Shown: in pieces, positions 36,735 through 57,950 of the stretch
Numbering within the stretch: position 1 is the first letter of the stretch
How the letters are laid out: the number at the start of each line of letters is the position of its first letter
Source: Flectonema sp. DT1601
Taxonomy: Eukaryota
Length of the DNA stretch: 64,000 nucleotides
NCBI GenBank assembly: GCA_964019425.1
Contig: OZ025785.1
Span: 992,001-1,056,000, forward strand
Direction: 5' to 3'
Position numbers and translations under genes: made by a program
The notes under the pieces: model-generated
Seen by the model: only the letters and a program-made list of their open reading frames with translations
The model's database searches: none
What the model was told of the DNA's origin: nothing

Positions 36735-39700
36735 TTTCTATTTTCCGTTTTTTTTTTTCTTTAAAAAATAAATAAAAAGAATTTAAAATAAAAAAAAGAA
36801 TAAACAATGTTATCATTGTTTTTTATCGATCGACTATGTCGATCACTTTCTATTCTCCGTCCTGGTCAAGACGCTAAACTGATTGTTTTTTTTTTCAAAA
36901 TTAATAAAAAAGAATATTAAAAAAAATACAAAAAAAAAAAGAATAAACAATGTTATCATTGTTTTTTTTTATCGTTCGACTTTGTCGACTAATTTCTATT
37001 TTCCGTTTTTTTTCTTTAAAAAATAAATAAAAAGAATATAAAATAAAAAAAAAGAATAAACAATGTTATCATTGTTTTTTTTTATCGATCGACTATGTCG
37101 ATTACTTTCTATTTTCCGTCCTGGTCAAGACGCCAAACTGATTGTTTTTTTTTCAAAATTAATAAAAAAGAATATTAAAAAAAATACAAAAAAAAAAGAA
37201 TAAACAATGTTATCATTGTTTTTTTTTATCGTTCGACTTTGTCGACTAATTTCTATTTTCCGTTTTTTTTCTCTAAAAAATAAATAAAAAGAATTTAAAA
37301 TAAAAAAAAAGAATAAACAATGTTATCATTGTTTTTTTTTATCGATCGACTATGTCGATTACTTTCTATTTTCCGTCCTGGTCAAGACGCTAAACTGATT
37401 GTTTTTTTTTTTTTTCAAAATAAAAAAAAATATTAAAAAAAAAAAAAATAAAAAAAAAGGAATAAACAATGTTATCATTGTTTTTTTATCGATCGACTAT
37501 GTCGATTACTTTCTATTTTCCGTCCTGGTCAAGACGCTAAACTGATTGTTTTTTTTTTCAAAATAAAAAAAAATATTAAAAAAAAAAAATAAAAAAAAAG
37601 AATAAACAATGTTCTCATTGTTTTTTTTTATCGTTCGACTTTGTCGACTAATTTCTATTTTCCGTTTTTTTTCTCTAAAAAATAAATAAAAAGAATTTAA
37701 AATAAAAAAAAAGAATAAACAATGTTATCATTGTTTTTTTTATCGATCGACTATGTCGATTACTTCCTATTTTCCGTCCTGGTCAAGACGCTAAACTGAT
37801 TGTTTTTTTTTCAAAATTAATAAAAAAGAATATAAAAAAATAAAAAAAAGAATAAACAATGTTATCATTGTTTTTTTTTATCGTTCGACTTTGTCGACTA
37901 ATTTCTATTTTCCGTTTTTTTTTTTTTTTCTTTAAAATAAATAAAAAGAATTTAAAATAAAAAAAAAAAAGAATAAACAATGTTATCATTGTTTTTTTTT
38001 ATCGATCGACTATGTCGATTACTTTCTATTTTCCGTCCTGGTCAAGACGCTAAACTGATTGTTTTTTTTTCAAAATTAATAAAAAAGAATATAAAAAATA
38101 AAAAAAAAAAGAATAAACAATGTTATCATTGTTTTTTTTTTATCGTTCGACTTTGTTGACTAATTTCTATTTTCCGTTTTTTTTTCTTTAAAAAATAAAT
38201 AAAAAGAATTTAAAAAAAAAAAAAAAAAAAAAAGAATAAACAATGTTATCATTGTTTTTTTATCGATCGACTATGTCGATTACTTTCTATTTTCCGTCCT
38301 GGTCAAGACGCTAAACTGATTGTTTTTTTTTTTTTTTTTTTTCAAAATTAATAAAAAAGAATATAAAAAAAAAAAATAAAAAAAAGAATAAACAATGTTA
38401 TCATTGTTTTTTTATCGTTCGACTTTTCCGTTTTTTTCTCTTAAAAAATTAATAAAAAAGAATATAAAAAAAAAAAAATAAAAAAAAGAATAAACAAAGT
38501 TATCATTGTTTTTTTATCGTTCGACTTTGTCGACTAATTTCTATTTTCCGTTTTTTTTTTCTTAAAAAATAAATAAAAAGAATTTAAAAAAAAAAAAAAA
38601 AAAAAAAGAATAAACAATGTTATCATTGTTTTTTTATCGATCGACTATGTCGATTACTTTCTATTTTCCGTCCTGGTCAAGACGCTAAACTGATTGTTTT
38701 TTTTTTTTTTTTTTTTTCAAAATTAATAAAAAAGAATATAAAAAAAAAAAATAAAAAAAAGAATAAACAATGTTATCATTGTTTTTTTATCGATCGACTT
38801 TGTCGACTAATTTCTATTTACCGTCCTGGTCAAGACGCTAAACTGATTGTTTTTTCTAAATAAATAAAAAGAATAAAAAAAAAAAAAAAAAAAAAAAAGA
38901 TTAAACAATGTTATCATTGTTTTTTTTTATCGATCGACTATGTCGATTACTTTCTATTTTCCGTTTTTTTTTCTTTTCCTGTCTGACTGACTGTTTTTTC
39001 TTTAAAAAATAAATAAAAAGAATAAAAAAAAAAAAAAAAAAAAAAAGAATAAACAATGTTATCATTGTTTTTTTATCGATCGACTTTGTCGACTAATTTC
39101 TATTTACCGTCCTGGTCAAGACGCTAAACTGATTGTTTTTTCTAAATAAATAAAAAGAATAAAAAAAAAAAAAAAAAAAAAAAAAGATTAAACAATGTTA
39201 TCATTGTTTTTTTTTATCGATCGACTATGTCGATTACTTTCTATTTTCCGTTTTTTTTTCTTTTCCTGTCTGACTGACTGTTTTTTCTTTAAAAAATAAA
39301 TAAAAAGAATAAAAAAAAAAAAAAAAAAAAAAGAATAAACAATGTTATCATTGTTTTGTTATCGATCGACTTTGTCGACTAATTTCTATTTTCCGTCCTG
39401 GTCAAGACGCTAAACTGTTTGTTTTTTCTTTAAAAAATAAATAAAAAGAATAAAAAAAAAAAAAACAAAAAAAAAAAGAATAAACAATGTTATCATTGTT
39501 TTTTTATCGATCGACTATGTCGATCACTTTCTATTTTTCGTCCTGGTCAGGACGCTAAACTGATTGTTTTTTCTTTAAAAATAATAAAGAATTTCGATAA
39601 GAAGGATTTAAAAAAAAAAAAAAAAAAAAAGAATAAACAATGTTATCATTGTTTTTTTTTATCGATCGACTATGTCGATCACTTTCTATTTTCCGTCCTG

Positions 39701-40428
39701 GTCAAGACGCTAAACTGATTGTTTTTTTTCAAAATTAATAAAAAAGAATACAAAAAAAAATAAAAAAAAAAGAATAAACAATGTTATCATTGTTTTTTTT
39801 TATCGATCGTCTATGTCGATCACTTTCTATTTTCCGTCCTGGTCAAGACGCTAAACTGATTGTTTTTTTTTCAAAATTAATAAAAAAGAATATAAAAAAA
39901 AAATAAAAAAAAAAGAATAAACAATGTTATCATTGTTTTTTTTTATCGATCGTCTATGTCGATCACTTTCTATTTTCCGTCCTGGTCAAGACGCTAAACT
40001 GATTGTTTTTTTTCAAAATTAATAAAAAAGAATACAAAAAAAAATAAAAAAAAAAGAATAAACAATGTTATCATTGTTTTTTTTTATCGATCGTCTATGT
40101 CGATCACTTTCTATTTTCCGTCCTGGTCAAGACGCTAAACTGATTGTTTTTTTTCAAAATTAATAAAAAAGAATACAAAAAAAAATAAAAAAAAAAGAAT
40201 AAACAATGTTATCATTGTTTTTTTTTATCGATCGTCTATGTCGATCACTTTCTATTTTCCGTCCTGGTCAAGACGCTAAACTGATTGTTTTTTTTTCAAA
40301 ATTAATAAAAAAGAATATAAAAAAAAATAAAAAAAAAAGAATAAACAATGTTATCATTGTTTTTTTTTTTTATTGTTCGACTTTGTTGACTGGTCAAGAC
40401 GCTAAACTGATTGTTTTTTCTTTAAAAA
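36735..40428. repeat. AT-rich satellite array 1; monomers A (about 120 bp) and B (about 100 bp), often alternating
   Basis: A = GAATAAACAATGTTATCATTG(T)nATCGATCGACTATGTCGATYACTTTCTATTTTCCGTCCTGGTCAAGACGCTAAACTGATTG(T)nCAAAATTAAT(A)n... B has ATCGTTCGACTTTGTCGACTAAT and lacks the CCTGGTCAAGACGCTAAACTG segment. Confidence 0.97.
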
Positions 40429-40439
40429 GAAGATTTCAT

Positions 40440-43400
40440 TTGGAACTGAATGGAAGGACATCGACGTTTCTGCTGCAGAAAAACTTCAAACTTTCTCCGT
40501 CGAAACAGAAAACTCTTCAAAACCTGCCGACCAACTTGATAAACTACTCAAAACGGTTTATCAAATATGTAGCGGTTTCTTTGAAGAAACAAAGCGGAAT
40601 TTACCCCGCAAACAGAAATCAAGGGAAGAGGTCATCCTCGACCAAGAAAAACTTGAATGTCGTCTGGAAATGAAACAGCTAAGACAGGAGCTCCGCAAAT
40701 CTGGGCCTTCTATAGAGAACGCTGTCAAATGGAAAGAGGCAAGAACGAGAATGAAAAGGATTTTCCGAATGTATCGGAATTTAGAAAAGAAAAATCTATT
40801 CAAAAAATTACAAGATAAATTTCGTCAAAATCCGTTTTCTGCCATAAAAGAAGAACTCCAAAAAGAAGATCCTCAACCCCCCTCCCTTGATATTCCAGAG
40901 GAAAAAATAATTGAACATTTTAGAAACAATTATTGTGACAATGAAAAAAAAAAAACTGATTTCACCCATCCCTCTTTTTTACCTAAGTCTGACTACAAGA
41001 CAATGGATGATATCCAGTTCCCGAGCTTCGAACAGTTTGGTATTCTCTTATCAAAGAAAAAAAACAAATGTGCCCCTGGTCCCAATTGCATACCTTATGT
41101 TGTATGGAAAAAGGTCCCAACTTTTATGGAAGCACTTTACAAGGTATTAAAGAGAATTTTCGAACTCAAGGCCTATCCGGATAGTTGGGGCTTAGCATTT
41201 GTAACAATGCTCCCAAAGCCCAACTCCGATGGGAAAGACATCTCGAAAACGAGACCGATAGCTGTGGGCAACTGCGACGGGAAAATTTTTAATACGGTTA
41301 TTCAGGAAGCCGTCGCAAACCACACTCTTTCTAAATTTAATTTTCAAAAAGGCTTTAGGAAAGGTGTCTCTGGGTGTATCGAACATGCCACGATCACCTC
41401 AGAGATTTTTAAAGAAGTGAAAGCTCTCCGGAAAAACCTAACAATTGTCTGGGTGGATTTGGCAGATGCTTTCGGCTCAGTCAAACATCAATTAATTTTC
41501 TTTGCTTTAAAATATTTCGGAATTCACGAAAGAATAATCGGTTTCTATAAAAGGTATTATTCCTCCATGCGCGTCCAAATCAGAGTTGGAGAAGGCCTGA
41601 CGCCCACTATCCCTTTTGAAGTTGGTGTCTTTCAAGGCTGCGTTTCCTCCCCAACCCTTTTTAATTTGGTATTCCAACTACTGCTCTTTTCCTTAGCAGT
41701 TCATCAACAGGAAGCCTACGAGTTTAACAATAAATCCCTCCAACTATTAGTTGCAGCTTTTGCTGATGATTTACAACTTACCACGTCATCAAAGGCGGGG
41801 GCAAAATTGCTAATCAAGTCGCTCGAACAGTTTCTTTCCTGGTCTCGTGGTATGAAAGCGAAACCCCAGAAATGCATTGCCCACAGCTTTGTACAAGGGA
41901 AACCAGCTAACCCGGACCTGAAGATTAACAATGTTCCGATTACGAATCTCCAGGAAGCTGGAGAGTTCAAATACCTCGGGCGTTGGTTTGAGCCGAACGC
42001 CAAAGAACAGAAATTGCGAGAGCGCCTGACCACTTTTACCAGGAATTTTTTAAAAAAAGTCGACGCCATGCCACTATATGGGTCTCAGAAGGCTTGGTCT
42101 GTCCAACACTTGTTATTGTCAAGGTTAACATGGAGTTTAATGATCCATGACTTATCTCTCCCTTTTGCCAAAAAAATGGACAAAATTATTAAACCTTTTT
42201 TGAAGAAATGGTGGGGATTTGTCCGCTCTGCGAACACAGTCATCCTTTTTACCGGTTCAAAGAACACTGTTGGTCTCAGACACAAAAGAGTTGAGACGCT
42301 ATATAAACAAGCGCAATCAATTAAACTAGACATCCACAGATCCTCACAGGACTCTGACATGCACGGTGTCTACAATGTTATTATGGAGAAATCGTCCAAC
42401 TGGTCGAAAAAGTTTTCAGCTTCTGCTGAGTGGGAGCGCCTTATTAAGTTTTTTTCTTACCGTTCTCTTGCGAAGCAATCAGCTGGTCTTGGTCACCGAT
42501 TGCGCGATCTACGTACTACTCGCCCCGATCTCCTTAAGCGTTTTGAAGTGGAAGCCACAGATGAACTACTGAACTCTTTGAATAAATTACAAGTCCAAGG
42601 TCAGTGGAAGGAGTGGTCTAAATGTATGATAAACGATTTCACCTGGAATAAGGTACTTAGGGAGGGAAATCCTGCCTATATCTCATTTCAACTGAAAGCG
42701 GTTACAAACACCCTCCCCTCACAAGATAATTTAAAGAGGTGGAACATCACCAATGTGGACCAAAATTGTGTTTTGTGTGGCAAAGTGAATCCTACCCTCA
42801 GGCATGTCTTAACAGGCTGTCCTGTCTCTTTAACACAAGGGAGGTTCACGTGGCGTCACGACAGCGTTCTAAAACGCATTGTTATCTTCTTGGAAGAGTT
42901 GATAATAAAAGCCAACAAAAGAAAAGAAAACCTCCCGCCTCCCTCTCAAACTTTTTTAAAAACAGGGGAAAATAAACCCCTAGAAAGAATTTCTAAAGAG
43001 ACAGGCGAACTTTCACTAGCGAATGATTGGGTCATCCTCGACGATGTCGGTGATAACCGCCTAATTGTTCCTCTTGAAGTGTGCCATGTCTCGTCCTCTC
43101 TAAGACCAGACATTTTTATTTATTCTTTTTTTGCGAAAAGAGCACTGATTCTGGAGCTGACGTGTCCAAATGAAGATCGTTTCGAAACCTCTCATGTCTT
43201 AAAGGAAAAGAAATACCTAAAGCTAAGAGACTCGATCATCGCTAATGGCTTCGACTGTAACATTTTTACTATTGAAGTTGGCGTACGAGGAAACATCTGC
43301 ATGGACCAGCTGAACATCTGGACACGTCACATCGGTTCACCTTTAGCACCAACAAAAGCTTTATTTTGTGAATGCACCAGAATCGCCAGACAGTGCTCAT

Positions 43401-45468
43401 ATGTTCTGTTCCAGACGAGGAACCTCCCCACGTGGCATTCAAGACCACTAATGCGCAGCATTAAAGAAGAACCTGCCACTGCAAGTTTTATAAAAGATGG
43501 TAAAGAAATCTTCCCTGTGGAAGAAGTCAAAATCCACAAAGTAACAAAACTGAAAACGATCGAAAAGCTCACCATTGAAAGATCGTGGCTTGAGAAATGT
43601 TTTATCTGGCAAACTTGTTACGCATCGGCTCTTTCTATTCTACTTATTGCCAATGGTTCTTCCTCCCCGGCCCCTTCTGTTTTGTTAGATGAGGATGAGC
43701 TCACTGGACTCTCCTTGTCATTCTCTTCTATTTCTTCCATCTCTTTCCAGACTCCCCCACCTGAACTCATGTCAACGGGATCGCAAACACTTCCTGCTGA
43801 TTTCGCTATAGTGATAAGAACTCAATCTGACATGGGTTCTCAAACCCCCTTGTACAAAAAAAAAGAAGGAAAATTAAGGCTGAAACTTTCCTTGAAATGC
43901 CAGATTTTAGAAAACGAATTAGAGCAAATGAAAGAACGAATTTTTTATGTTCTATTTTTATTTTACTTTAATGCGATGTCAGCCTCCCTCGAGAAAGACA
44001 AGCAGTTACTAAATGGATTACCTGTTGAGATCAAAGCTACCAACCAGGATCCATCCTCACTTCCTCCTGCGCCCCCTGTTTTAATTATTGAAAAAGATAG
44101 AAAAGAATATGAACTTCTGGAAGGAGTAATTCAACGGTTAACAGCAGAACGCGATGAATCGAAGACTTCTCTTTCTGCACTAGTTCGACAATATGACTTA
44201 GTGGAAGATTACAGGAAACGTGAGCTCGCAAATCTGACTCAGAGAGCAGACCTATCGGAAATGGCGCTCTTTAATTACCATCAAAGGTTTGTTCTTCTGT
44301 CGAACGAATTGGAGACCAAATGTAATGAGGAAAGAGAAAGTAAAATAAGACTTTTCTATACTCAACAGGAGGTCGAGAGTTTGCGTGCCGCGCGTCCCCG
44401 TATGACCCACTTTAGTCAACAAGTTTCCCCCCGAACCCCCGTTCTGTATGAATCTGTTGCTATGATGAAGATAGCAAAGAACTACCTCTCGCTCTTTACA
44501 ACTACGAGTAGTCTTTTTACTCCTCTTATTAAACCCCTTATCCCTACCCTTAATTATATCACCCCTCTTTGTCCTCTAGCCTCAATTCCTCCGACAATGC
44601 CGCAGAGTGAAGCTCTCGACCGCACGCCGACCAAGATTTTACGACAAGAGAGTCACGTTATCTCCGTTAAAGAGAATACACCTATTGCGAGACAATGGTC
44701 CGAGGGTAGGATTGACTTACTCGAGAATTACTGTCGAGCAGTAGATGACTCTCTCGAAACAAACGAGAAAGCGGCAGAGCTCTCAGAACAACTTCTGGAT
44801 GCCCAACTTCGCCTCTCGGAGCTGAATCACCAACGGTGTACAACTCACGCAGAGCAGCTTGAGCAATCCATGATGTTAACGGGACTGGCGAGCGATTTAA
44901 ATGCTCAACTCGCCTTGGCACGGTCTCAAATTGCGGCCCTGAAGTTCCAATTAGCTTCATGGGCAGAAGGTTTGAGTCCGCCAGACACAGAAGAACATGA
45001 GGAAAATGAAACTCCGCCGAGAAAGTCTGAGCGTTCAACTCTGAAAAAACGAACCCCTCCATCAAGATATCGTTACAATCGAAGGAGATGTTCTGCTGAT
45101 GACGTTCACGGTGACTCCACCCCCTTGTAATTCTCTTTTTCCTTACTTTCACATCACTTTGTTTATTTAGTTTTTTAGCTTATTTATTATTTATTGTTCG
45201 TTTTTGTTTGTATTATTTTATCGATATGTTTATGTCCGTCAGATCATAACGTTAATCTGGTTAATTGTTAATTGTTAATTATAAATGGTCTAAACCCCAA
45301 TCCAAGTTCCCAAGGCTTGGCATAGATTTGAGTGACGCCTTACTGGCCTCCTCATCCTCTATGAGTGGTGAGGGGGCCAGCAATGGTTTTTTTTTTTTTT
45401 TTTCTCTTATTTCTTTTTTTCTTTTTCTTTTACTCTAATATGAAATATTTTTGAACAAAATGTGATTA

Positions 45469-45499
<31 letters not shown>
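40440..45499 (+). mobile_element. 5'-truncated non-LTR retrotransposon of RLE type (HERO-clade-like) with 3' UTR and poly(A)
   Basis: The frame is open from the satellite junction (GTEWKDID...) to the stop at 45130, followed by about 345 nt of UTR and an A-run at 45476-45499. No clear target-site duplication. Confidence 0.85.
40670..45130 (+). CDS. RT + CCHC zinc knuckle + restriction-like endonuclease polyprotein with about 560-aa C-terminal extension
   Basis: RT motifs APGPNCIPY, TRPIA, QKGF, WVDLADAFGSV, GVFQGCVSSP, FADD (41759-41770), KYLG. Also CVLC..LRHVLTGC..SLTQGRFTWRHDSVL (HERO-like) and RLE RPD..ILELTCP..KEKKY..IEVGVRG. Confidence 0.93.
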   Translation: MKQLRQELRKSGPSIENAVKWKEARTRMKRIFRMYRNLEKKNLFKKLQDKFRQNPFSAIKEELQKEDPQPPSLDIPEEKIIEHFRNNYCDNEKKKTDFTHPSFLPKSDYKTMDDIQFPSFEQFGILLSKKKNKCAPGPNCIPYVVWKKVPTFMEALYKVLKRIFELKAYPDSWGLAFVTMLPKPNSDGKDISKTRPIAVGNCDGKIFNTVIQEAVANHTLSKFNFQKGFRKGVSGCIEHATITSEIFKEVKALRKNLTIVWVDLADAFGSVKHQLIFFALKYFGIHERIIGFYKRYYSSMRVQIRVGEGLTPTIPFEVGVFQGCVSSPTLFNLVFQLLLFSLAVHQQEAYEFNNKSLQLLVAAFADDLQLTTSSKAGAKLLIKSLEQFLSWSRGMKAKPQKCIAHSFVQGKPANPDLKINNVPITNLQEAGEFKYLGRWFEPNAKEQKLRERLTTFTRNFLKKVDAMPLYGSQKAWSVQHLLLSRLTWSLMIHDLSLPFAKKMDKIIKPFLKKWWGFVRSANTVILFTGSKNTVGLRHKRVETLYKQAQSIKLDIHRSSQDSDMHGVYNVIMEKSSNWSKKFSASAEWERLIKFFSYRSLAKQSAGLGHRLRDLRTTRPDLLKRFEVEATDELLNSLNKLQVQGQWKEWSKCMINDFTWNKVLREGNPAYISFQLKAVTNTLPSQDNLKRWNITNVDQNCVLCGKVNPTLRHVLTGCPVSLTQGRFTWRHDSVLKRIVIFLEELIIKANKRKENLPPPSQTFLKTGENKPLERISKETGELSLANDWVILDDVGDNRLIVPLEVCHVSSSLRPDIFIYSFFAKRALILELTCPNEDRFETSHVLKEKKYLKLRDSIIANGFDCNIFTIEVGVRGNICMDQLNIWTRHIGSPLAPTKALFCECTRIARQCSYVLFQTRNLPTWHSRPLMRSIKEEPATASFIKDGKEIFPVEEVKIHKVTKLKTIEKLTIERSWLEKCFIWQTCYASALSILLIANGSSSPAPSVLLDEDELTGLSLSFSSISSISFQTPPPELMSTGSQTLPADFAIVIRTQSDMGSQTPLYKKKEGKLRLKLSLKCQILENELEQMKERIFYVLFLFYFNAMSASLEKDKQLLNGLPVEIKATNQDPSSLPPAPPVLIIEKDRKEYELLEGVIQRLTAERDESKTSLSALVRQYDLVEDYRKRELANLTQRADLSEMALFNYHQRFVLLSNELETKCNEERESKIRLFYTQQEVESLRAARPRMTHFSQQVSPRTPVLYESVAMMKIAKNYLSLFTTTSSLFTPLIKPLIPTLNYITPLCPLASIPPTMPQSEALDRTPTKILRQESHVISVKENTPIARQWSEGRIDLLENYCRAVDDSLETNEKAAELSEQLLDAQLRLSELNHQRCTTHAEQLEQSMMLTGLASDLNAQLALARSQIAALKFQLASWAEGLSPPDTEEHEENETPPRKSERSTLKKRTPPSRYRYNRRRCSADDVHGDSTPL

Positions 45500-45503
<4 letters not shown>

Positions 45504-45621
45504 AATGAATAATAAAAAAAAAAAAAAAAAAACATGCCTTGGGAATACAACCAAAGCCCCAATTAATCGGTCCTTTCTTTTTTCCTTCTTGTCAAGTGAT
45601 CGCTCCACTCGTCGATCACCA

Positions 45622-46051
45622 AAACCGATTGTATTTATATCTGTTCTTTTCTCAACGATCGGCTATACCGATCATTTTTTTTAAAAACAATTGTTTTCTT
45701 CTTCTCGACGATCAGATCCAATTGATCGACCTTTTCTTTTTTTTTCCTTTATTCCTTCCATCCCTCCCGCTCCCCTTATTTTAATAAAAACAAGATCAGC
45801 TCAGCTTGATCGTTAAACTTTTTTTTTTTTTATTTATTTATTTTTTTTTTTTTTATTTAAACTGATTGTATTTATATCTGGTTATTTTTCTCAACGATCG
45901 GCTATGCCGATCGACCTTTAAAATAATTGTCTTCTTCTTCTCGACGACCAGATCCAATTGATCGACCTTTTCTTTTTTTTTCCTTTATTCCTTCCATCCC
46001 TCCCGCTCCCCTTATTTTAATAAAAACAAGATCAGCTCAGCTTGATCGTTA
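45622..46051. repeat. Two diverged tandem copies (period about 237 bp) containing satellite-related motifs
   Basis: Both copies start AAACYGATTGTATTTATATCTG, contain GATCGGCTATRCCGATC and end GATCAGCTCAGCTTGATCGTTA. Confidence 0.9.
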
Positions 46052-46330
46052 TTTATTTATTTATTTATATTTTTTTTTTTGTTGGTCCTAGTCAAGACCT
46101 TAAACTGACTAATCGGTCTTAACTTTAACTAAGTGAATGAACCCTTTCCGTTTTCCTTTTCCCTTTATTACTCTCTATCTGGTCTGTTATGTCATAAATC
46201 TCATTTAATTTTATCATTCATTTTAATTTTCACTGTTTCCCATCTACATTTTATTTTCAAATAGTTCCGGTCTGTCTCTGATGATAAATAAAACTGATCA
46301 TGTTAACTCAATATTTTTTTTTATTATGTG

Positions 46331-46432
46331 CAAGAGATACCAACACGCAAGAGATACCAACGCACATACGAGATACCAGCACTTCCGAGATACCGACACA
46401 CAAGAGATACCAAGACACTTAAGATACCAGCA
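46331..46432. repeat. Minisatellite, six AGATACC cores at 17-19 bp spacing
   Basis: AGATACC at 46335, 46352, 46371, 46388, 46405 and 46422. Confidence 0.85.
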
Positions 46433-46699
46433 AGGACAGTGAGAGGTAGAATGAACTCTCCTCCTTGTGTCCGATCCTGATTATTTTTTGTTGAATTGGT
46501 AGTGTTACCTCAGTTTGCTACTCTCGTATCTGTGTTGTGTTAACTCATGTAAGTGATCTTAACTCCTGTTAAATAAAAAAAAAAATTTCAAAAAAAAAGA
46601 AATTAAAAAAGAAGAATTTTCAAATGAAGTTATATCAACCCCTGCCACCCATTATGATCAATTCCGCTTGTTTTTTTTTTTTTTTTTTTTCTTCTTTCT

Positions 46700-49248
46700 T
46701 TTCTTCAAATATAAAAAAAAATTAAAAAATATAAAAGATGAAACAATGTTATCATTGTTTTTTTTATCGATCGACTATGTCGATTACTTCCAGTTTTCCG
46801 TCCTGGTCAAGACGCTAAACTGATTGTTTTTTTTTTTTTTTTTAAAAAATTAATAAAAAGAATATAAAAAAAAAAAAAAAAAAAGAATAAACAATGTTAT
46901 CATTGTTTTTTTTTTATCGTTCGACTTTGTCGACTAATTTCTATTTTCCGTTTCTTTTCTTTAAATAATAAATAAAAAGAATTTAAAATAAAAAAAAAGA
47001 ATAAACAATGTTATCATTGTTTTTTTATCGATCGACTATGTCGATTACTTTCTATTTTCCGTCCTGGTCAAGACGCTAAACTGATTGTTTTTTTTTTCAA
47101 AATTAATAAAAAAGAATATAAAAAAAAAAAAAAAAAAAAAAGAATAAACAATGTTATCATTGTTTTTTTTTATTGTTCGACTTTGTTGACTAATTTCTAT
47201 TTTCCGTTTTTTTTCTTTAAAAAATAAATAAAAAGAATTTAAAATAAATAAAAAAGAATAAACAATGTTATCATTGTTTTTTTATCGATCGACTATGTCG
47301 ATCACTTTCTATTTTCCGTCCTGGTCAAGACGCTAAACTGATTGTTTTTTTTTCAAAATTAATAAAAAAGAATAAAAAAAAAAAAAAAAAAAAAGAATAA
47401 ACAATGTTATCATTGTTTTTTTTATCGTTCGACTTTGTTGACTAATTTCTATTTTCCGTTTTTTTTCTTTAAAAAATAAATAAAAAGAATTTAAAATAAA
47501 AAAAAAGAATAAACAATGTTATCATTGTTTTTTTATCGATCGACTATGTCGATCACTTTCTATTTTCCGTCCTGGTCAAGACGCTAAACTGATTGTTTTT
47601 TTTTCAAAATTAATAAAAAAGAATATAAAAAAAAAAAAAAAAAAAGAATAAACAATGTTATCATTGTTTTTTTTTTATCGTTCGACTTTGTCGACTAATT
47701 TCTATTTTCCGTTTCTTTTCTTTAAAGAATAAATAAAAAGAATTTAAAATAAAAAAAAAAATAAACAATGTTATCATTGTTTTTTTATCGATCGACTATG
47801 TCGATCACTTTCTATTTTCCGTCCTGGTCAAGACGCTAAACTGATTGTTTTTTTTTCTCAAAATTAATAAAAAAGAATATAAAAAAATACAAAAAAAAGA
47901 ATAAACAATGTTATCATTGTTTTTTTTATCGTTCGACTTTGTCGACTAATTTCTATTTTCCGTTTTTTTTTTCTTTAAAAAATAAATAAAAAGAATTTAA
48001 AATAAAAAAAAAAAAAAAGAATAAACAATGTTATCATTGTTTTTTTATCGATCGACTATGTCGATCACTTTCTATTTTCCGTCCTGGTCAAGACGCTAAA
48101 CTGATTGTTTTTTTTTCAAAATTAATAAAAAAGAATATAAAAAAAAAAAAAAAAAAAGGAAAAACAATGTTATCATTGTTTTTTTTATCGTTCGACTTTG
48201 TCGACTAATTTCTATTTTCCGTTTCTTTTCTTTAAAGAATAAATAAAAAGAATTTAAAATAAAAAAAAAGAATAAACAATGTTATCATTGTTTTTTTTTA
48301 TCGATCGACTATGTCGATCACTTTCTATTTTCCGTCCTGGTCAAGACGCTAAACTGATTGTTTTTTTTTTCAAAATTAATAAAAAAGAATATAAAAAAAT
48401 ACAAAAAAAAGAATAAACAATGTTATCATTGTTTTTTTTATCGTTCGACTTTGTCGACTAATTTCTATTTTCCGTTTTTTTTTTCTTTAAAAAATAAATA
48501 AAAAGAATTTAAAATAAAAAAAAAGAATAAACAATGTTATCATTGTTTTTTTATCGATCGACTATGTCGATCACTTTCTATTTTCCGTCCTGGTCAAGAC
48601 GCTAAACTGATTGTTTTTTTTTCAAAATTAATAAAAAAGAATATTAAAAAAAATACAAAAAAAAAAAGAATAAACAATGTTATCATTGTTTTTTTTTTAT
48701 CGTTCGACTTTGTCGACTAATTTCTATTTTCCGTTTTTTTTCTTTAAAAAATGAATAAAAAGAATTTAAAATAAAAAAAAAGAATAAACAATGTTATCAT
48801 TGTTTTTTTTTATCGATCGACTATGTCGATTACTTTCTATTTTCCGTCCTGGTCAAGACGCTAAACTGATTGTTTTTTTTTTCAAAATAAAAAAAAAATA
48901 TTAAAAAAAAAAAAATAAAAAAAAAGAATAAACAATGTTATCATTGTTTTTTTTTTATCGTTCGACTTTGTTGACTAATTTCTATTTTCCGTTTTTTTTC
49001 TTTAAAAAATAAATAAAAAGAATTTAAAAAAAAAAAAAAAAAAAAGAATAAACAATGTTATCATTGTTTTTTTTATCGATCGACTATGTCGATTACTTTC
49101 TATTTTCCGTCCTGGTCAAGACGCTAAACTGATTGTTTTTTTTTCAAAATTAATAAAAAAGAATATAAAAAAATACAAAAAAAAGAATAAACAATGTTAT
49201 CATTGTTTTTTTTATCGATCGACTATGTCGATTACTTTCTATTTTCCG
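46700..49248. repeat. Satellite array 2 (regular A-B dimers)
   Basis: Same monomers and orientation as array 1, with nearly strict A/B alternation. Confidence 0.97.
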
Positions 49249-50409
49249 TGCAAGGGAACAGTCCAAAGCATAAGTCCGAACAGCCCTAAGGCCAGTGAAC
49301 GCACTGATTGTTAGGTATTGTATTCCAGGGAAAGTTTGGTTTGTATACTTTATTTTTATTTTATTTTATTTAATTTGTTAAAAGAAAACAGGTAACTTTA
49401 CATGAGCATCGGCTCGAACGGCTCTGGCGAAGCGAGTGAACGAGTCTGATTGCTGAGTATTGTATTCTGTTTTCTTGTTCTTTTTTTAATTTATTTCAAA
49501 CAGGGCAACAGGGGGAAAGTTTGGTTTGTATCCCCTGGGTGTTTAGCGTCACCTGTTGAGGTGTAATGTATTCTGTTTACTTCTATCCCTTTTTTTTTTT
49601 TTTTTTTTTTTTTTATTTCAAACAGGACAGCAGGGGGAAAGTTTGTTTCGTACCCCCCGGGTGCTTAGCGTCACCCTCCATGCGATGCTTGCGCAGGGAG
49701 AGCCAAGGGTCGAGAACCCTGGAGATTACCTTTGTTTCTTTTTGTGACTGGATTGCAGTGGCGCAACCCATCACCCCACCTGTTGGTATCTTTTTATTTT
49801 TTTTATTTAAAGAAAAAAGCAGGCTAAGTCGCCTGAGCTGGCATCGCCAGAATATTTAACTTCACATGGCAATGTCAGCTCGTGAAGGGATCCAGTTGGA
49901 TCAAAGGTTTTCTCCCCCCCACTCTATTTATCGTCATTGGTGCGCACCTTCGAACAGGAAGGCCAACACTGACGGAATTTTTTACTTCTCTTCCCAGGGT
50001 TGAACCTTGGGAAAAAAACAAACAATAAACACAGTGTAGACAAACACCCGCCGGACATCTGCAGAGCAGCGATCGATGTCGATGTCTTCGTTGTCGAACT
50101 TCCTGGCGTTTATGTTTTTGTTTTTAACAACAACACAACACCAACTAACAGGTTTGTCTCATTGCCCGTTCTTTCTTGTTTCCCTTTGCCGCCGGAAGAA
50201 CGAAGGTCGACGGAGGTCCGAAGCATTGCTTGCGATGATGTTCCGGTATGTGTTGCGTCTCTGTTGACGCTAAACTGATTGTTTTTTTTTCAAAATTAAT
50301 AAAAAAGAATATAAAAAAATACAAAAAAAAGAATAAACAATGTTATCATTGTTTTTTTTTATCGTTCGACTTTTTCATGTTTGATTATTTCCTCTTCATT
50401 TTTTTTTTC

Positions 50410-50440
<31 letters not shown>

Positions 50441-50632
50441 CCTCTGCCTCTCTCTTAATTCTGTTCGTTTCTTTGAAACGAAAATTCATTTGAATATTAT
50501 TCCTTGGTCAGCAACCATCATTGTCGCCCTTTGGGCCTGTTAAAAAAAATAAAAATAAAAAGAAAGTTTACATCGGGAATAGGGCAGGAGCCAAAAGCTC
50601 CCAGTCCGTTACTTCCCACTTTATCGAAATTC

Positions 50633-53600
50633 TTAGAAACTAGGAAACTAGGTTAACACTTAGTTAAAATTAAGACCGGTTAGTCAGTTTAAGGTCTTGT
50701 CTAGGACCAACATTCTTGTTTAACTTCAGTTATATTCATTTTACTTTTTATTGTTTCCCATCTGTTTTTATTTTCTATTAGTTCTGGTCAGAAACCCCTG
50801 GGCAGCAAGAAGGAAAACAGTTTAGTACTTCTGGGTGTTTGGCATCACCCCCCATAGTGAGCAAGTACAACAGGTAGCATTGGTAGTCTGTTGATCCTGA
50901 GTGATCCCAGCTACAGTTTTGTTTTTCTTTCTTTTTTTTAGAAGAAGATCAGGACATCCAAGCACTGCTGGATAGTTGCTGAATGCAGGGCCTGCCTGTG
51001 GCATTATAATAACAGGCTAAGTCATTTGTAGTTCATAGTTTACCTTTGATTTTATAACTTCACACAGGGTACTATGAACGATGAGAGATCCAGTGGGATC
51101 ACTCAGGGTCTAGTAGAGACCACCAATGTTGTGCGTTGATAGGCAAGGTGACCAACCTTGACATTCTTTCTTTTCTCTCCTGTTGTGACAAACACAAAAT
51201 ACACACACAGCTTACAGTGTGTTCTTTGTGTATGTTTTCTTCAGGTGTGAGTAGTTTTTTTGTTCTTGCTCTTCAGGGAGGGCCTTAGCCAAAAGCTAAC
51301 AGTCCAAATCTCACCTGGAAATTCAACTCATTAAAAGGTTAAAAAAAAAAAAAAAAAAAAAAAAAGATTAATCAATGTTATCATTGTTTTTTAATCGATC
51401 GACTATGTCGATCACTTTCAATTTTCCGTCCTGGTCAGGACGCTAAACTGATTGTTTTTTCTTTAAAAATAAATAAAAAGAATAAAAAAAAAAAAAAAAA
51501 AGGAATAAACAATGTTATCATTGTTTTTATTTTATCGATCGACTATGTCGATTACTTTCTATTTTCCGTCCTGGTCAAGACGCTAAACTGATTGTTTTTT
51601 CTTTAAAAAATAATAAGAAGGATTTAAAAAAAAAAAAAAAAAAAAAAAAAGAATAAACAATGTTATCATTGTTTTTTTATCGATCGACTATGTCGATCAC
51701 TTTCTATTTTTCGTCCTGGTCAGGACGCTAAACTGATTGTTTTTTCTTTAAAAATAATAAAGAATTTCGATAAGAAGGATTTAAAAAAAAAAAAAAAAAA
51801 AAAGAATAAACAATGTTATCATTGTTTTTTTTTATCGATCGACTATGTCGATCACTTTCTATTTTCCGTCCTGGTCAAGACGCTAAACTGATTGTTTTTT
51901 TTCAAAATTAATAAAAAAGAATACAAAAAAAAATAAAAAAAAAAGAATAAACAATGTTATCATTGTTTTTTTTTATCGATCGTCTATGTCGATCACTTTC
52001 TATTTTCCGTCCTGGTCAAGACGCTAAACTGATTGTTTTTTTTCAAAATTAATAAAAAAGAATACAAAAAAAAATAAAAAAAAAAGAATAAACAATGTTA
52101 TCATTGTTTTTTTTTATCGATCGTCTATGTCGATCACTTTCTATTTTCCGTCCTGGTCAAGACGCTAAACTGATTGTTTTTTTTTCAAAATTAATAAAAA
52201 AGAATATAAAAAAAAATAAAAAAAAAAGAATAAACAATGTTATCATTGTTTTTTTTTTTTATTGTTCGACTTTGTTGACTGGTCAAGACGCTAAACTGAT
52301 TGTTTTTTCTTTAAAAAGAAGATTTCATATTAGAAACTAGGAAACTAGGTTAACACTTAGTTAAAATTAAGACCGGTTAGTCAGTTTAAGGTCTTGTCTA
52401 GGACCAACATTCTTGTTTAACTTCAGTTATATTCATTTTACTTTTTATTGTTTCCCATCTGTTTTTATTTTCTATTAGTTCTGGTCAGAAACCCCTGGGC
52501 AGCAAGAAGGAAAACAGTTTAGTACTTCTGGGTGTTTGGCATCACCCCCCATAGTGAGCAAGTACAACAGGTAGCATTGGTAGTCTGTTGATCCTGAGTG
52601 ATCCCAGCTACAGTTTTGTTTTTCTTTCTTTTTTTTAGAAGAAGATCAGGACATCCAAGCACTGCTGGATAGTTGCTGAATGCAGGGCCTGCCTGTGGCA
52701 TTATAATAACAGGCTAAGTCATTTGTAGTTCATAGTTTACCTTTGATTTTATAACTTCACACAGGGTACTATGAACGATGAGAGATCCAGTGGGATCACT
52801 CAGGGTCTAGTAGAGACCACCAATGTTGTGCGTTGATAGGCAAGGTGACCAACCTTGACATTCTTTCTTTTCTCTCCTGTTGTGACAAACACAAAATACA
52901 CACACAGCTTACAGTGTGTTCTTTGTGTATGTTTTCTTCAGGTGTGAGTAGTTTTTTTGTTCTTGCTCTTCAGGGAGGGCCTTAGCCAAAAGCTAACAGT
53001 CCAAATCTCACCTGGAAATTCAACTCAGTCCTTGTCAGTTTTGGCATCAAACTTGTAATGGTTTAATCATTACAGGTTATTTACTGAAATATTTGTTCTA
53101 AAAGTTGCTAAGTATTTCTCACTTAGAAATTTTTTATTTTTTTATTTTCAGCTTAATTAGCTACAAATTGTTTCTACTAAGTGTTTCTCGCTTAGTTTTT
53201 TTTTTTTGCTTTTCAGCTCCTTAAAAGCTGCTAAGTGTTTCTGCTAAGTGTTTCTCACTTAGAATTTTATTTTTATGTTCGTTTTCTATCCCTTCTCCTA
53301 TCCCTTTTGTTCAAAATAAGCGGGAGGAAATTCTCTCATTCACGCTAAGATGCACTCTGAACTTTGATTTTTTGATCTGAGTGTGAGGGAATGACCTGTT
53401 AGTGCATTGGGCATAGGCTGGGCTGCAGTTTAGATGTCTTAGGTGTTAATAGGGGGTTCCTCTTAGCATTTTTCTTTGTTCCCACCTTATGATTTTCTTG
53501 AAGAAAAAAAATAGAAGTCATAATGGTGCTTCCCTCTGGAAGGGTTGTAAGCCATGGTGTCCAACTAAATTAAAGGACAAGTCTGGGATAATCCCTGCCA

Positions 53601-54552
53601 GAGGGGCGAGTATTCTACCATGGTTGAAATACTCTGGCAACTGATCTTCAATTTTATGTTGTTTGTTAGCTGCTGGTGTATCTCGATCATGTGTTGATAC
53701 TTGCATTTTTTTTTATTTGTAATCTTTTACTACAATAACTCTTGCAATTATCTTTTCTTTTTTATTCTCTATCTGTTCTGGTCTGTTTCTTCATTTTTTT
53801 TACATTAATAATTACATTTTGTTCAAAAAGAAAAAAAAAGAAAAAGATTTCATATTAGAAACTAGGAAACTAGGTTAACACTTAGTTTAAATTAAGACCG
53901 GTTAGTCAGTTTAAGGTCTTGTCTAGGACCAACATTCTTGTTTAACTTCAGTTATATTCATTTTACTTTTTATTGTTTCCCATCTGTTTTTATTTTCTAT
54001 TAGTTCTGGTCAGAAACCCCTGGGCAGCAAGAAGGAAAACAGTTTAGTACTTCTGGGTGTTTGGCATCACCCCCCATAGTGAGCAAGTACAACAGGTAGC
54101 ATTGGTAGTCTGTTGATCCTGAGTGATCCCAGCTACAGTTTTGTTTTTCTTTCTTTTTTTTAGAAGAAGATCAGGACATCCAAGCACTGCTGGATAGTTG
54201 CTGAATGCAGGGCCTGCCTGTGGCATTATAATAACAGGCTAAGTCATTTGTAGTTCATAGTTTACCTTTGATTTTATAACTTCACACAGGGTACTATGAA
54301 CGATGAGAGATCCAGTGGGATCACTCAGGGTCTAGTAGAGACCACCAATGTTGTGCGTTGATAGGCAAGGTGACCAACCTTGACATTCTTTCTTTTCTCT
54401 CCTGTTGTGACAAACACAAAATACACACACAGCTTACAGTGTGTTCTTTGTGTATGTTTTCTTCAGGTGTGAGTAGTTTTTTTGTTCTTGCTCTTCAGGG
54501 AGGGCCTTAGCCAAAAGCTAACAGTCCAAATCTCACCTGGAAATTCAACTCA
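50633..54552. repeat. Block X (about 700 bp): near-identical direct copies at 50633-51329, 52329-53027 and 53854-54552; partial copy at about 36392-36733
   Basis: The identical short ORF MPQAGPAF... is reported four times in the ORF track and the nucleotide sequences match by eye. Copies 2 and 3 are 1525 bp apart. Confidence 0.93.
53794..53934 (-). mobile_element. About 140-nt A-tailed retro-insertion sharing its 3' end with the HERO-like element
   Basis: Minus strand ends TCTAATATGAAATC...TTTTTGAACAAAATGTAATTATTAATGT(A)8, matching 45434-45499. Absent from the homologous site at about 36385-36395. Confidence 0.65.
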
Positions 54553-54842
54553 TTAAAAGGTTAAAAAAAAAAAAAAAAAAAAAAAAAGATTAATCAATGT
54601 TATCATTGTTTTTTAATCGATCGACTATGTCGATCACTTTCAATTTTCCGTCCTGGTCAGGACGCTAAACTGATTGTTTTTTCTTTAAAAATAAATGAAA
54701 AGAATAAAAAAAAAAAAAAAAAAAAAAAAGAATAAACAATGTTATCATTTTTTTTTTATCGATCGACTATGTCGATTACTTTCTATTTTCCGTCTTGGTC
54801 AAGACGCTAAACTGATTGTTTTTTCTTTAAAATAATTAAAAG

Positions 54843-54875
<33 letters not shown>

Positions 54876-54988
54876 ATAAACAATGTTATCATTGTTTTTT
54901 TTCTATCGATCGACTATGTCGATTAATTTCTATTTTCCGTCCTGATCGAGACGCTAAACTGATTGTTTCCTTTTTTTAAATAATAAAT

Positions 54989-55020
<32 letters not shown>

Positions 55021-55444
55021 ATCTCCCTGCTATCCTCATATCCCCACAATAATATTATACCTTTTCATTTTCTCTTTCCTTTTCTGGTCTTTTTTTTTCT
55101 TTTTTTCCTTTTTCATACAACGTTTTTTTATTTATATTTATATTTTTTTTTTTTTTTTTTTTTTTCATGTTTGATTATTTCCTCTTCATATTTTTTTTTT
55201 TCTATTCTTTCTTTTTTTTTTTTTTTTTTCTCTGCCTCTCTCTCAATTCTGTTCGTTTCTTTGAAACGAAAATTCATTTGAATATTATTCCTTGGTCAGC
55301 AACCATCATTGTCGCCCTTTGGGCCTGTTAAAAAAAAAAAAAAAAAATAAAAAGAAAGTTTACATCGGGAATAGGGCAGGAGCCAAAAGCTCCCAGTCCG
55401 TTACTTCCCACTTTATCGAAATTTTTTAAAAAATAAATAAAAAG

Positions 55445-55484
<40 letters not shown>

Positions 55485-55731
55485 AATGTTATCATTTTTT
55501 TTTTATCGATCGACTATGTCGATCACTTTCAATTTTCCGTCCTGGTCAGGACGCTAAACTGATTGTTTTTTCTTTAAAAATAAATGAAAAGAATAAAAAA
55601 AAAAAAAAAAAAAAAAAAGAATAAACAATGTTATCATTTTTTTTTTATCGATCGACTATGTCGATTACTTTCTATTTTCCGTCTTGGTCAAGACGCTAAA
55701 CTGATTGTTTTTTCTTTAAAATAATTAAAAG

Positions 55732-55764
<33 letters not shown>

Positions 55765-57950
55765 ATAAACAATGTTATCATTGTTTTTTTATCGTTCGAC
55801 TTTTCCGTTTTTTTCTCTTAAAAAATAAATAAAAAGAATTTAAAAAAAAAAAAAAAAAAAAAAGAATAAACAATGTTATCATTGTTTTTTTATCGATCGA
55901 CTTTGTCGACTAATTTCTATTTACCGTCCTGGTCAAGACGCTAAACTGATTGTTTTTTCTAAATAAATAAAAAGAATAAAAAAAAAAAAAAAAAAAAAAA
56001 AAGATTAAACAATGTTATCATTGTTTTTTTTTATCGATCGACTATGTCGATTACTTTCTATTTTCCGTTTTTTTTTCTTTTCCTGTCTGACTGACTGTTT
56101 TTTCTTTAAAAAATAAATAAAAAGAATAAAAAAAAAAAAACAAAAAAAAAAGAATAAACAATGTTATCATTGTTTTTTTATCGATCGACTATGTCGATTA
56201 CTTTCTATTTCTCTGCCTCTCTCTTAATTCTGTTCGTTTCTTTGAAACGAAAATTCATTTGAATATTATTCCTTGGTCAGCAACCATCATTGTCGCCCTT
56301 TGGGCCTGTTAAAAAAAAATAAAAAATAAAAAGAAAGTTTACATCGGGAATAGGGCAGGAGCCAAAAGCTCCCAGTCCGTTACTTCCCACTTTATCGAAA
56401 TTCATCACTTTCTATTTCTCGTCCTGGTCAGGACGCTAAACTGATTGTTTTTTCTTTAAAAATAAATAAAAAGAATAAAAAAAAAAAAAAAAAAGGAATA
56501 AACAATGTTATCATTGTTTTTATTTTATCGATCGACTATGTCGATTACTTTCTATTTTCCGTCCTGGTCAAGACGCTAAACTGATTGTTTTTTCTTTAAA
56601 AAATAATAAGAAGGATTTAAAAAAAAAAAAAAAAAAAAAAAAAGAATAAACAATGTTATCATTGTTTTTTTATCGATCGACTATGTCGATCACTTTCTAT
56701 TTTTCGTCCTGGTCAGGACGCTAAACTGATTGTTTTTTCTTTAAAAATAATAAAAAGGATTTAAAAAAAAAAAAAAAAAAAAAGAATAAACAATGTTATC
56801 ATTGTTTTTTTTTATCGATCGACTATGTCGATCACTTTCTATTTTCCGTCCTGGTCAAGACGCTAAACTGATTGTTTTTTTTCAAAATTAATAAAAAAGA
56901 ATACAAAAAAAAATAAAAAAAAAAGAATAAACAATGTTATCATTGTTTTTTTTTATCGATCGTCTATGTCGATCACTTTCTATTTTCCGTCCTGGTCAAG
57001 ACGCTAAACTGATTGTTTTTTTTTCAAAATTAATAAAAAAGAATATAAAAAAAAAATAAAAAAAAAAGAATGAACAATGTTATCATTGTTTTTTTTTATC
57101 GATCGTCTATGTCGATCACTTTCTATTTTCCGTCCTGGTCAAGACGCTAAACTGATTGTTTTTTTCAAAATTAATAAAAAAGAATACAAAAAAAAATAAA
57201 AAAAAAAGAATAAACAATGTTATCATTGTTTTTTTTTATCGATCGTCTATGTCGATCACTTTCTATTTTCCGTCCTGGTCAAGACGCTAAACTGATTGTT
57301 TTTTTTTCAAAATTAATAAAAAAGAATATAAAAAAAAAATAAAAAAAAAAGAATAAACAATGTTATCATTGTTTTTTTTTATCGATCGTCTATGTCGATC
57401 ACTTTCTATTTTCCGTCCTGGTCAAGACGCTAAACTGATTGTTTTTTTTCAAAATTAATAAAAAAGAATACAAAAAAAAATAAAAAAAAAAGAATAAACA
57501 ATGTTATCATTGTTTTTTTTTATCGATCGTCTATGTCGATCACTTTCTATTTTCCGTCCTGGTCAAGACGCTAAACTGATTGTTTTTTTTTCAAAATTAA
57601 TAAAAAAGAATATAAAAAAAAAATAAAAAAAAAAAAATAAACAATGTTATCATTGTTTTTTTTTTTTATTGTTCGACTTTGTTGACTAATTTCTATTTTC
57701 CGTTTTTTTTTCTTTTTAAAAAGTAAATAAAAAGAATTTAAAAAAAAAAAAAAAAAAAAAGAATAAACAATGTTATCATTGTTTTTTTTTATCGATCGAC
57801 TATGTCGATTACTTTCTATTTTCCGTCCTGGTCAAGACGCTAAACTGATTGTTTTTTTTTCAAAATTAATAAAAAAGAATATAAAAAAAAACAAAAACAA
57901 AAAGAATAAACAATGTTATCATTGTTTTTTTTTTATCGTTCGACTTTGTC

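Follow-up and report, generated by a model that had tools for sequence, protein, structure and literature searches.

In the satellite DNA of Flectonema sp. DT1601, the third dyad of the longer monomer (H3) plus the 12 bases that follow it are predicted to form an H-type pseudoknot similar to the coremin RNAs of viruses. In our estimate there is about an even chance that this coremin-type pseudoknot comes from a retroelement-linked RNA, in which it would act as a roadblock to decay, and that it later became a passenger of a satellite whose other hairpins, H1 and H2, are unselected. Direct support comes from the match to a natural motif, the covariation among its relatives, the presence of two fold-keeping versions in the host and the decay of H1 and H2. 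The analysis covers a single 64,000-nt locus, the whole of which we call the window (contig OZ025785.1, positions 992,001 to 1,056,000).

Table 1. Features of the window (coordinates count from its first nucleotide).
Feature	Position	Strand	Remarks
Satellite array I	36735..40430	+	monomers A (~140 bp; H1, H2, pseudoknot) and B (~113 bp; no pseudoknot); limits approximate
Satellite array II	46690..49248	+	A and B alternate; first monomer diverged; limits approximate
Satellite array III	51338..52325	+	extra short piece at 50262-50375
Satellite arrays IV and V	54560..56205	+	400-bp repeat (55017-55423) in between
Satellite array VI	56404..57950	+	runs up to a 200-N assembly gap (57951-58150)
Outlying 1.5 monomers	34573..34806	+	followed by 400-bp repeat (34807-35209); between two GC-rich minus-strand ORFs
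700-bp non-coding repeat	50633..51337	.	copies at 52330-53027 and 53855-54559, part at 36392-36734; leads into arrays
H1 hairpin, example copy	36802..36821	+	8 bp, 4-nt loop; no covariation
H2 hairpin, example copy	36828..36844	+	7 bp, 3-nt loop; frequently broken elsewhere
Two-copy 236-bp repeat	45622..46079	+	H2 relatives at 45657-45673 (one mismatch) and 45896-45912 (perfect)
Non-LTR retrotransposon ORF	40439..45130	+	RT plus zinc knuckle and RLE-type motifs; joined to array I by its truncated 5' end; frame stays open back to 40406
Predicted pseudoknot, satellite form (H3 plus tail)	36858..36885	+	37 identical copies; 3 G.U pairs in second stem; 35.7 bits
Predicted pseudoknot, fully Watson-Crick form (H3 variant)	46084..46111	+	31.0 bits
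Inverted pseudoknot copy in 700-bp repeat	50681..50708	-	one loop-tail pair broken; also at 52378-52405 and 53903-53930

Every array in the window lies on the plus strand, the strand of the RT ORF (Table 1). Monomer A folds better than 198 of 200 shuffled sequences (z -2.35) and contains two perfect arms of at least 6 bp versus 0.23 expected (7 of 300 shuffles). Short inverted repeats are also abundant in the neighbouring non-coding DNA. Contigs of three out of four public runs, one of them possibly the source of the window itself, contain the monomer; it was not seen in the fourth, X3, possibly as an effect of filtering. Searches with the exact monomer pattern in metagenome contigs and with an H2-H3 pattern in viral contigs gave no matches, and Rfam detected only two tRNAs in the window. 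With its AT-rich ~140-bp monomer, dyads below 10 bp and higher-order alternation of A and B, the array resembles satellites with short dyad symmetries, such as those of PMC5889037; the pseudoknot is not accounted for by dyad symmetry of that kind. The evidence does not establish a function of the satellite array as such.

A sequence-only reading of this DNA had described the monomer as a chain of three conserved hairpins. The three dyads are present, and the H2 and H3 variants that it cited, at 45896-45912 and 46084-46110, are exactly as claimed. Conservation of the chain is nevertheless not supported: nine stem sites (four in H1, five in H2) vary in the array, all without compensation, and 26 of the 75 monomers lack a full H3; these uncompensated changes were omitted from that reading, as was the pairing of the H3 loop with the tail. 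Variable positions make up 9 of the 30 stem sites of H1 and H2, no different from non-stem sites (p 0.11). No covariation was found in H1, the 20-mer of which occurs 68 times in the window, always on the plus strand, and covariation in H2 amounts to one compensatory event with a score reached by 19 of 500 shuffles. The form of H2 that it gave is real (16 exact copies) but in the minority; 23 copies end in GATT and 11 carry an unpaired A>T change. Likewise, the proposed diverged relatives are more similar to the monomer than any of 300 shuffles, at sites picked by eye and post hoc, but they are not diverged monomers: they lie in the separate two-copy 236-bp repeat, which also has the pseudoknot tail without its hairpin, and in a motif that also occurs in the 700-bp repeat. 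A conserved multi-hairpin RNA would combine covariation with few breaks, and H1 and H2 lack this combination. Neither hairpin shows a sign of conservation, and the DNA-level reading considered below is a sufficient account of both.

The same reading further took the structure, not the sequence, to be what is maintained, and saw in this a sign of a structured RNA; the claim fails for H1 and H2 and holds for H3, as a pseudoknot with its tail. In the predicted fold, stem 1 pairs (C/G)GUC with GAC(G/C), and the 8-nt loop begins with C, its next six bases pairing with the hexamer 3' of a YUAAAC linker. The H3 16-mer is found 39 times and the tail 52 times in the window, all on the plus strand, and the wobble-weakened pseudoknot is present in 49 of the 75 monomers. 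The satellite copy and the copy at 46084 differ at 6 of 28 sites with all ten pairs kept. Random sets of six changes keep the pairs in 1-19% of trials, the upper value, for changes that are all transitions, being not significant, and keep the core letters as well in 0.004-0.2%, a figure that is partly circular because the search patterns fixed letters common to both window copies. Within the array, the pseudoknot varies at 6 of 28 sites and non-stem sequence at 14 of 27 (p 0.026). A loop-tail pair is broken in one array copy and in the three inverted copies of the 700-bp repeat. The second stem of the satellite form is weak, a weakness matched by just 15 of 81 natural copies, and both of its inner G.U pairs occur in one of these 81. 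A T-run and then an A-run come after each array motif; only A-U stems (-1.2 to -3.7 kcal/mol) follow the three satellite copies folded, and an interrupted stem (-3.8) follows the copy at 46084. The structure of H3 is supported by its viral and bacterial relatives and by one non-array copy rather than by the array.

Several other candidates were discarded. A hairpin at 45596-45619 with AAAC after it is motif-like to the eye but scores under 8 bits in the profile described below. Array junctions counted by eye fall inside the pseudoknot in two out of seven cases, as its length predicts. An inference of strand from G.U pairs in the H2 and H3 hairpins was dropped because any transition yields G.U on one strand. 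Hammerhead, snoRNA box, Pol III box B, spliced-leader and pistol elements were set aside by eye and had no match in Rfam.

The natural relatives of the motif are found in phages, bacteria and RNA viruses. A pattern derived from the window matches about 340 stretches of IMG/VR, versus one for the reversed pattern, and about 140 stretches of prokaryotic DNA; with the loop left free, it matches ~2200 stretches versus ~680 for the reversed control. Among the distinct motifs of the loop-free set, 81 of 118 have an 8-nt loop, and loop and tail pair over at least 4 bp in 72 of these 81. Three loop-tail positions are Watson-Crick in 74, 72 and 60 of the 81, compared with shuffle maxima of 49, 57 and 47. 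For 74 viral and two window motifs, the covariation score is 0.307 versus 0.125 (0 of 500 shuffles; slid controls at most 0.106), the shuffles ignoring kinship among phages. A profile built from the loop-free set gives the window copies 27-37 bits, and the best of 20 shuffled windows 7.1. The unnamed 8-nt-loop pseudoknot of phages and bacteria agrees with the window copies in length, core letters and pairing register, and their scores fall inside its natural range (31-36 bits versus the null of 7.1). Rfam, run on 27 motif-bearing loci, returned weak unrelated matches only and assigned no family.

The natural copies are few per genome and lie mostly just past stop codons, 63 of 85 viral copies being at most 30 nt downstream of one. 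By contrast, the window copies are eukaryotic and sit in non-coding DNA, either ~950 nt past the RT stop, in DNA linked to the transposon, or in the tandem satellite. RNA-virus contigs carry the motif just past the RdRp/replicase stop: in a picorna-like contig (L006) it is followed by poly(A), and in two others (L065 and L070) by a coat gene. Only two loci in viral contigs show the motif followed by poly(A), one of them being in L006, so that a general position at the 3' end is not supported. A downstream stem lies near 25 of 91 viral copies.

Coremin (xrRNA-C) is known from BNYVV RNA3 and other RNA viruses (PMC6546385, PMC10520033), with a GUC/GAC stem and an AAACU spacer (PMC10520033), bases of which are essential (PMC6546385). 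The window pseudoknot shares its hp1 stem of 3-4 bp, its NYUAAACU spacer including the essential A-A-C-U, and the pyrimidine that opens the loop; natural variants of both tolerate a flipped basal pair and C as the first spacer base. However, the window has G at the position of coremin A20, the last of the essential spacer bases A16-A20 (A-A-C-U-A). The coremin loop is YGAD or YGNNAD, with G second, whereas the window loops, CUGGUCAA and CUAGUCAA, have 8 nt with U second; the loop contact is non-canonical in coremin and a canonical six-pair loop-tail helix in the window. A second hairpin directly follows the coremin spacer, while the window copies have no clear or stable one; both the YGAD/YGNNAD loop and this hairpin are required for Xrn1 stalling by the tested coremins. 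Coremin is moreover a viral RNA, and Xrn1 resistance of the chromosomal motif is predicted by likeness. A second known form is xrRNA-WCC (PMC10321173), in which a coremin stem and spacer are combined with a covarying antiparallel Watson-Crick loop-spacer pseudoknot. Its loop has 4 nt and starts with G, and its second stem comprises 2-3 bp with hp2 needed for Xrn1 resistance, in contrast to the 8-nt loop starting with C and the 5-6 pairs of the window motif. In the literature searched, no coremin-like motif is reported from phages, transposons or eukaryotic chromosomes, although the figure alignments and supplements of the Dilweg papers might list cases with an 8-nt loop.

The possible source of the motif is suggested by the neighbouring retrotransposon, which may be Hero-like. 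Its ORF matches Pfam RVT_1 and zf-RVT, and a motif scan places a CCHC knuckle and the restriction-like endonuclease motifs RHD, PD, ELxxP and KxxKY after the RT. The order of motifs and the 5' truncation are those of RLE-type (R2-group) elements, from which it differs by a 500-aa extension after the nuclease. In contigs of three public runs, the match begins at 40439 with different sequence upstream. The pseudoknot at 46084 lies 3' of this ORF in the same sense and is a candidate part of its transcript: one public contig links the ORF to 45724, diverged copies of 46088-46660 occur in two runs, and no public contig spans 45724-46088. No relatives of this RT were confirmed in viral contigs. Protein searches aimed at the host taxon gave no close relative with a name, one EukProt protein matching at 70%; 'diplonemid' and 'TATE-like' are tentative labels. 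No xrRNA-like motif in RLE-type retrotransposons was found in the literature searched. We suggest that a retroelement-linked RNA, transcribed from the plus strand, brought the motif into the genome within its non-coding part, where the pseudoknot is predicted to block 5'-to-3' decay, as the likeness to coremin suggests for Xrn1. The fold would have been under selection in the host lineage, and a piece bearing it would then have multiplied to form the satellite, the pseudoknot being a passenger and H1 and H2 free of selection.

An unlikely alternative is that some foreign RNA, such as the 3' end of an RNA virus, was the source from which the motif was retro-copied once or twice, that it has been functionless since and that the array is a mere junk satellite. 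At 25 of 25 bases, the picorna-like end of L006 is identical to the 46084 copy, and a T-run and poly(A) come next, as they do in the monomer. If functional motifs were captured twice, two pairing-consistent versions would result without selection in the host, and the weak satellite stem and the absence of the motif from a third of the monomers fit as well. On the other hand, the window holds no remnant of viral protein (10 motif-flanking viral ORFs, tblastn, none at E<=0.01), and the flanks show no similarity to 390 loci beyond one match at E 0.009. The satellite stem, moreover, has three wobble pairs and no mismatch, and the pseudoknot is less variable than the linkers. Quite unlikely, in our view, is a functional array RNA, in which Xrn1 would trim read-through transcripts to each pseudoknot, leaving short, stable RNAs terminated by the A-rich tract. 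The common strand of arrays and RT ORF, the T- and A-runs, the 37 identical copies and the loop-tail pairing kept in four of five array point-variant types are consistent with it. Recent amplification by itself predicts identity among copies, however, and the motif has a weak second stem, is missing from 26 monomers and is cut through by three junction types (one at 50262).

It is improbable that the dyads act at the level of DNA, as cruciforms or protein-binding sites (for example, of a centromere-type satellite), with the double changes made by palindrome-templated template switching. Such switching can make and repair a stem in one event, as described in PMC8794818, and two array variants (7 and 2 copies) do turn H3 into a perfect 7-bp palindrome, resembling the hairpins of that work in perfecting a quasi-palindrome. 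The surrounding non-coding DNA is rich in inverted repeats, and an array meets the assembly gap. Nevertheless, the cruciform offered by the sequence-only reading fails to explain the loop-to-tail pairing of H3, the DNA-level reading does not say why H3 and its tail match a natural motif of 28 nt, and coordinated loop-tail changes between two host versions are not expected from a hairpin-templated event. Chance resemblance or an assembly artefact is very improbable and, within the reach of our tests, refuted: the motif is short and the initial patterns came from the window itself, but the profile scores far exceed the null maximum, the reversed pattern is nearly without matches, and the monomer recurs in the public runs noted above.

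In the literature found, RNA viruses are the only source of coremin-type RNAs, and their fold there is unsolved. We found no prior paper on this pseudoknot inside a eukaryotic chromosome. The retrotransposon might use the minimal exonuclease-blocking pseudoknot of RNA viruses and phages, the host might have multiplied it into the satellite, and Xrn1 might trim satellite transcripts into stable short RNAs, making the array a tandem chromosomal series of xrRNAs, a doubtful extension. The long-loop, canonically paired form is common to phages, bacteria, RNA viruses and a eukaryotic transposon/satellite, and its covariation-defined fold and natural variants are open to direct assay. If the motif stalls Xrn1, nuclease roadblocks reach nuclear mobile elements, and this satellite would derive from a functional RNA module.

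The host genes in the window are eukaryotic (Pfam Acyl_transf_3, DUF1308 and BTB), and a protein search with a window gene recovered one EukProt relative (70%). Positions 36735-57950 interleave AT-rich satellite arrays with a non-LTR retrotransposon ORF and with non-coding repeats of 400 and 700 bp, and the interval closes on the right at a 200-N gap. The satellite monomer is no assembly invention, since it is present in contigs of three out of four public sequencing runs, one of which may be the window's own source. Among 75 monomers of the studied interval bearing the dyad H1, 49 contain the full dyad H3 and its tail. The 400-bp repeat ends on the right at an identical base in all four copies (35209, 50632, 55423 and 56403), resembling a mobile-element terminus, whereas its left ends vary; its last 12 bases are inserted, reverse-complemented, in two monomers (39589-39600 and 51762-51773). 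Other elements are listed in the table. The GC-rich ORFs, which resemble pieces of tyrosine-recombinase retroelements (TATE/DIRS-like), have no Pfam matches; the larger is interrupted by satellite and the 400-bp repeat, and no target duplication was seen. Behind its tail, the 1722-aa frame has Pro/Thr repeats, one ubiquitin hydrolase (UCH) domain and a pair of RNase H1 N-terminal domains; it probably represents a mobile element of unusual type that includes a deubiquitinase.

Features of the window, in window positions
Feature	Position	Strand	Remark
tRNA gene	1473-1545	+	Rfam
GC-rich ORF	11669-12127	+	
CCCH-finger protein	22107-23330	-	long His runs
tRNA gene	23486-23558	+	Rfam
MULE transposase in two frames	31120-32887	-	Pfam E 3e-4, below cut-off
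GC-rich ORF	33980-36250	-	
Non-LTR retrotransposon ORF	40406-45130		RT and zf-RVT domains (Pfam); RLE-type motifs (motif scan)
1722-aa frame after gap	58153-63321	+	endonuclease-like tail at start (by eye)

A sequence search located the three dyads of monomer A (H1, H2 and H3) and the cited variants of H2 (45896-45912) and H3 (46084-46110) where the sequence-only reading had placed them. The monomer A fold beats 198 of 200 shuffles, but short inverted repeats are also enriched in neighbouring non-coding DNA at 45131-45860 (8 versus 2.2 expected), in the 700-bp repeat (12 versus 5.0) and at 29400-31100 (10 versus 2.9). Within the array, four H1 and five H2 stem sites vary with no compensatory pair; an A>T change breaks H2 in 11 array copies, and the second H2 pair is broken in monomer B. 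Together, H1 and H2 stem sites are variable at 9/30, versus 14/27 non-stem sites (p = 0.11). An alignment of eight H2 types contains one pair in which both partners change; it occurs in the two sister copies of a single 236-bp repeat, and the H2 covariation score is matched or exceeded by 19 of 500 shuffles. The sister copy of the H2 variant has an inner mismatch, and its outer pair is broken in a contig of run X1 (45672). With H1 and H2 stems broken without compensation and a single double change in H2, the proposed three-hairpin structured RNA is unsupported: both are real dyads whose conservation the evidence does not support. Template switching suffices to account for them; a single event of this kind can create or restore a stem (excerpt of PMC8794818).

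By contrast, maintenance of structure holds for H3, as a pseudoknot with its tail, on the evidence of loop-tail covariation in relatives. In this 28-nt element, the 8-nt loop pairs with the tail after a YUAAAC linker. A search pattern that combines both window versions matched five viral contigs and a single metagenome contig; in these, the loop is complementary to the sequence downstream of the AAAC linker. A looser pattern matched about 340 viral stretches (126 among the matches listed), versus one for the reversed pattern, and a near-identical pattern about 140 prokaryotic stretches (120 among the matches listed). Because these patterns build in the window's own loop, we also searched with the loop left free, obtaining about 2200 stretches (136 among the matches listed; reversed control, about 680). 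The matches listed comprise 118 distinct motifs, of which 81 carry a loop of 8 nt; 74, 72 and 60 of these 81 are Watson-Crick at three loop-tail positions, versus shuffle maxima of 49, 57 and 47. When the two window forms are added to 74 distinct viral 28-mers, pairing is present in 93.7% of cells and the covariation score is 0.307 versus 0.125, reached by none of 500 shuffles, with slid controls at or below 0.106, although both kinds of control disregard phage relatedness. The basal stem pair flipped in the H3 variant is C-G in 37, A-U in 11, U-G in 9, U-A in 4 and G-C in 3 sequences of this set. With a profile from the loop-free set, intact window copies score 27-37 bits, against 7.1 for the best site of 20 shuffled windows. 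No Rfam family matched the pseudoknot in the window or the motif-bearing loci. As a motif match and fold, a coremin-like pseudoknot in this eukaryotic transposon/satellite region is well supported.

Many of 80 titles for the prokaryotic loci (L269-L388, among the matches listed) are Omnitrophota, Desulfobacterales/Deltaproteobacteria or Planctomycetales. Locus L001 has two copies (417-443 and 612-638, minus strand); behind each of them lie another conserved element and a ribosome-binding site. In phage loci L008, L022, L044, L050, L053 and L069, the pseudoknot lies, by eye, a few bases upstream of a putative tRNA gene.

Coremin (xrRNA-C) of plant viruses stalls Xrn1 and scanning ribosomes and, in the excerpts of PMC10520033 and PMC6546385, requires both a downstream hairpin and a loop of the form YGAD/YGNNAD. 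The window motif shares the coremin stem (GUC/GAC) and spacer (AAACU), although position 20 is G here where coremin has A, and the loop-spacer pairing of Watson-Crick coremin (xrRNA-WCC; excerpt of PMC10321173) parallels the loop-tail pairing here. However, the WCC loop is 4 nt long and starts with G, and the window motif has an 8-nt loop outside the coremin rule and no clear second hairpin; it is therefore not assigned to either class. By analogy, the motif likely works as these RNAs do. Phage locus L062 links the two types, with an 8-nt-loop form directly followed by a canonical coremin-like form with the 6-nt loop CGAAAU, a type shown to resist Xrn1 (excerpt of PMC10520033). In RNA-virus contigs the motif lies 3' of the replicase stop, before poly(A) in L006 and before the coat gene in L065 and L070. 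A stop codon lies within 30 nt in 63 of 85 viral copies, unlike in the window. We found no published coremin-like motif in a chromosome, transposon or phage, a point on which figures and supplements may bear.

The retrotransposon ORF is about 30-35% identical to relatives outside its own family. Contigs of runs X1, X2 and X3 start to match at 40439, with 178-529 different bases upstream, which shows the window copy to be 5'-truncated where it meets array I. One X1 contig spans 43960 to 45724, and diverged copies of 46088-46660 occur in X1 and X2 contigs; judging by length and depth, the X2 record (748 bases, depth 3.3) is apparently also the match to a monomer start. None of the public-run contigs was found to bridge 45724-46088. 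Given the X1 and X2 matches, the motif at 46084-46111 (+) and a first monomer are plausibly part of the 3' region of the element, in the sense orientation. Positions 46113-46121 can pair with the 3' side of stem 1 of this motif; the pseudoknot would then face competition from this alternative MFE fold.

In the 46084 copy all six loop-tail pairs are Watson-Crick and their strength is typical, with 55 of 81 natural copies equally weak or weaker. The satellite copy, free of mismatches but with three G.U pairs, ranks among the weaker ones (15/81). The two differ at six of 28 sites with all 10 pairs kept, an outcome of 1%, 5% or 19% of 200,000 random trials depending on transition bias; pairs and core letters are both kept in 0.004-0.2%, where the core-letter part is partly circular. 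Within the array, 6/28 pseudoknot sites vary (p = 0.026 versus non-stem sites), and a loop-tail pair is broken in one single-copy array variant and in three inverted copies of the 700-bp repeat.

Several explanations must be weighed against this background. The motif might have been retro-copied from a foreign RNA and been functionless in the host since, the array being junk satellite; no viral coding remnant was found in the window, and we regard such inert capture as unlikely. Satellite transcripts cut back by Xrn1 to each pseudoknot could instead act as functional RNA, which appears less likely still. Lower again we place a role at the DNA level, with the dyads as cruciform or protein-binding sites and the double changes arising by palindrome-templated template switching; two array variants (7 and 2 copies) have a perfect H3 palindrome, as template switching predicts. 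Chance resemblance or an assembly artefact is highly improbable, the latter being countered by the monomer's occurrence in the public runs. The best explanation as a whole, to which we give about even odds (roughly 0.5), is that a predicted roadblock pseudoknot derived from a retroelement-linked RNA was amplified into the satellite as a passenger, its function in this eukaryotic region being a prediction.
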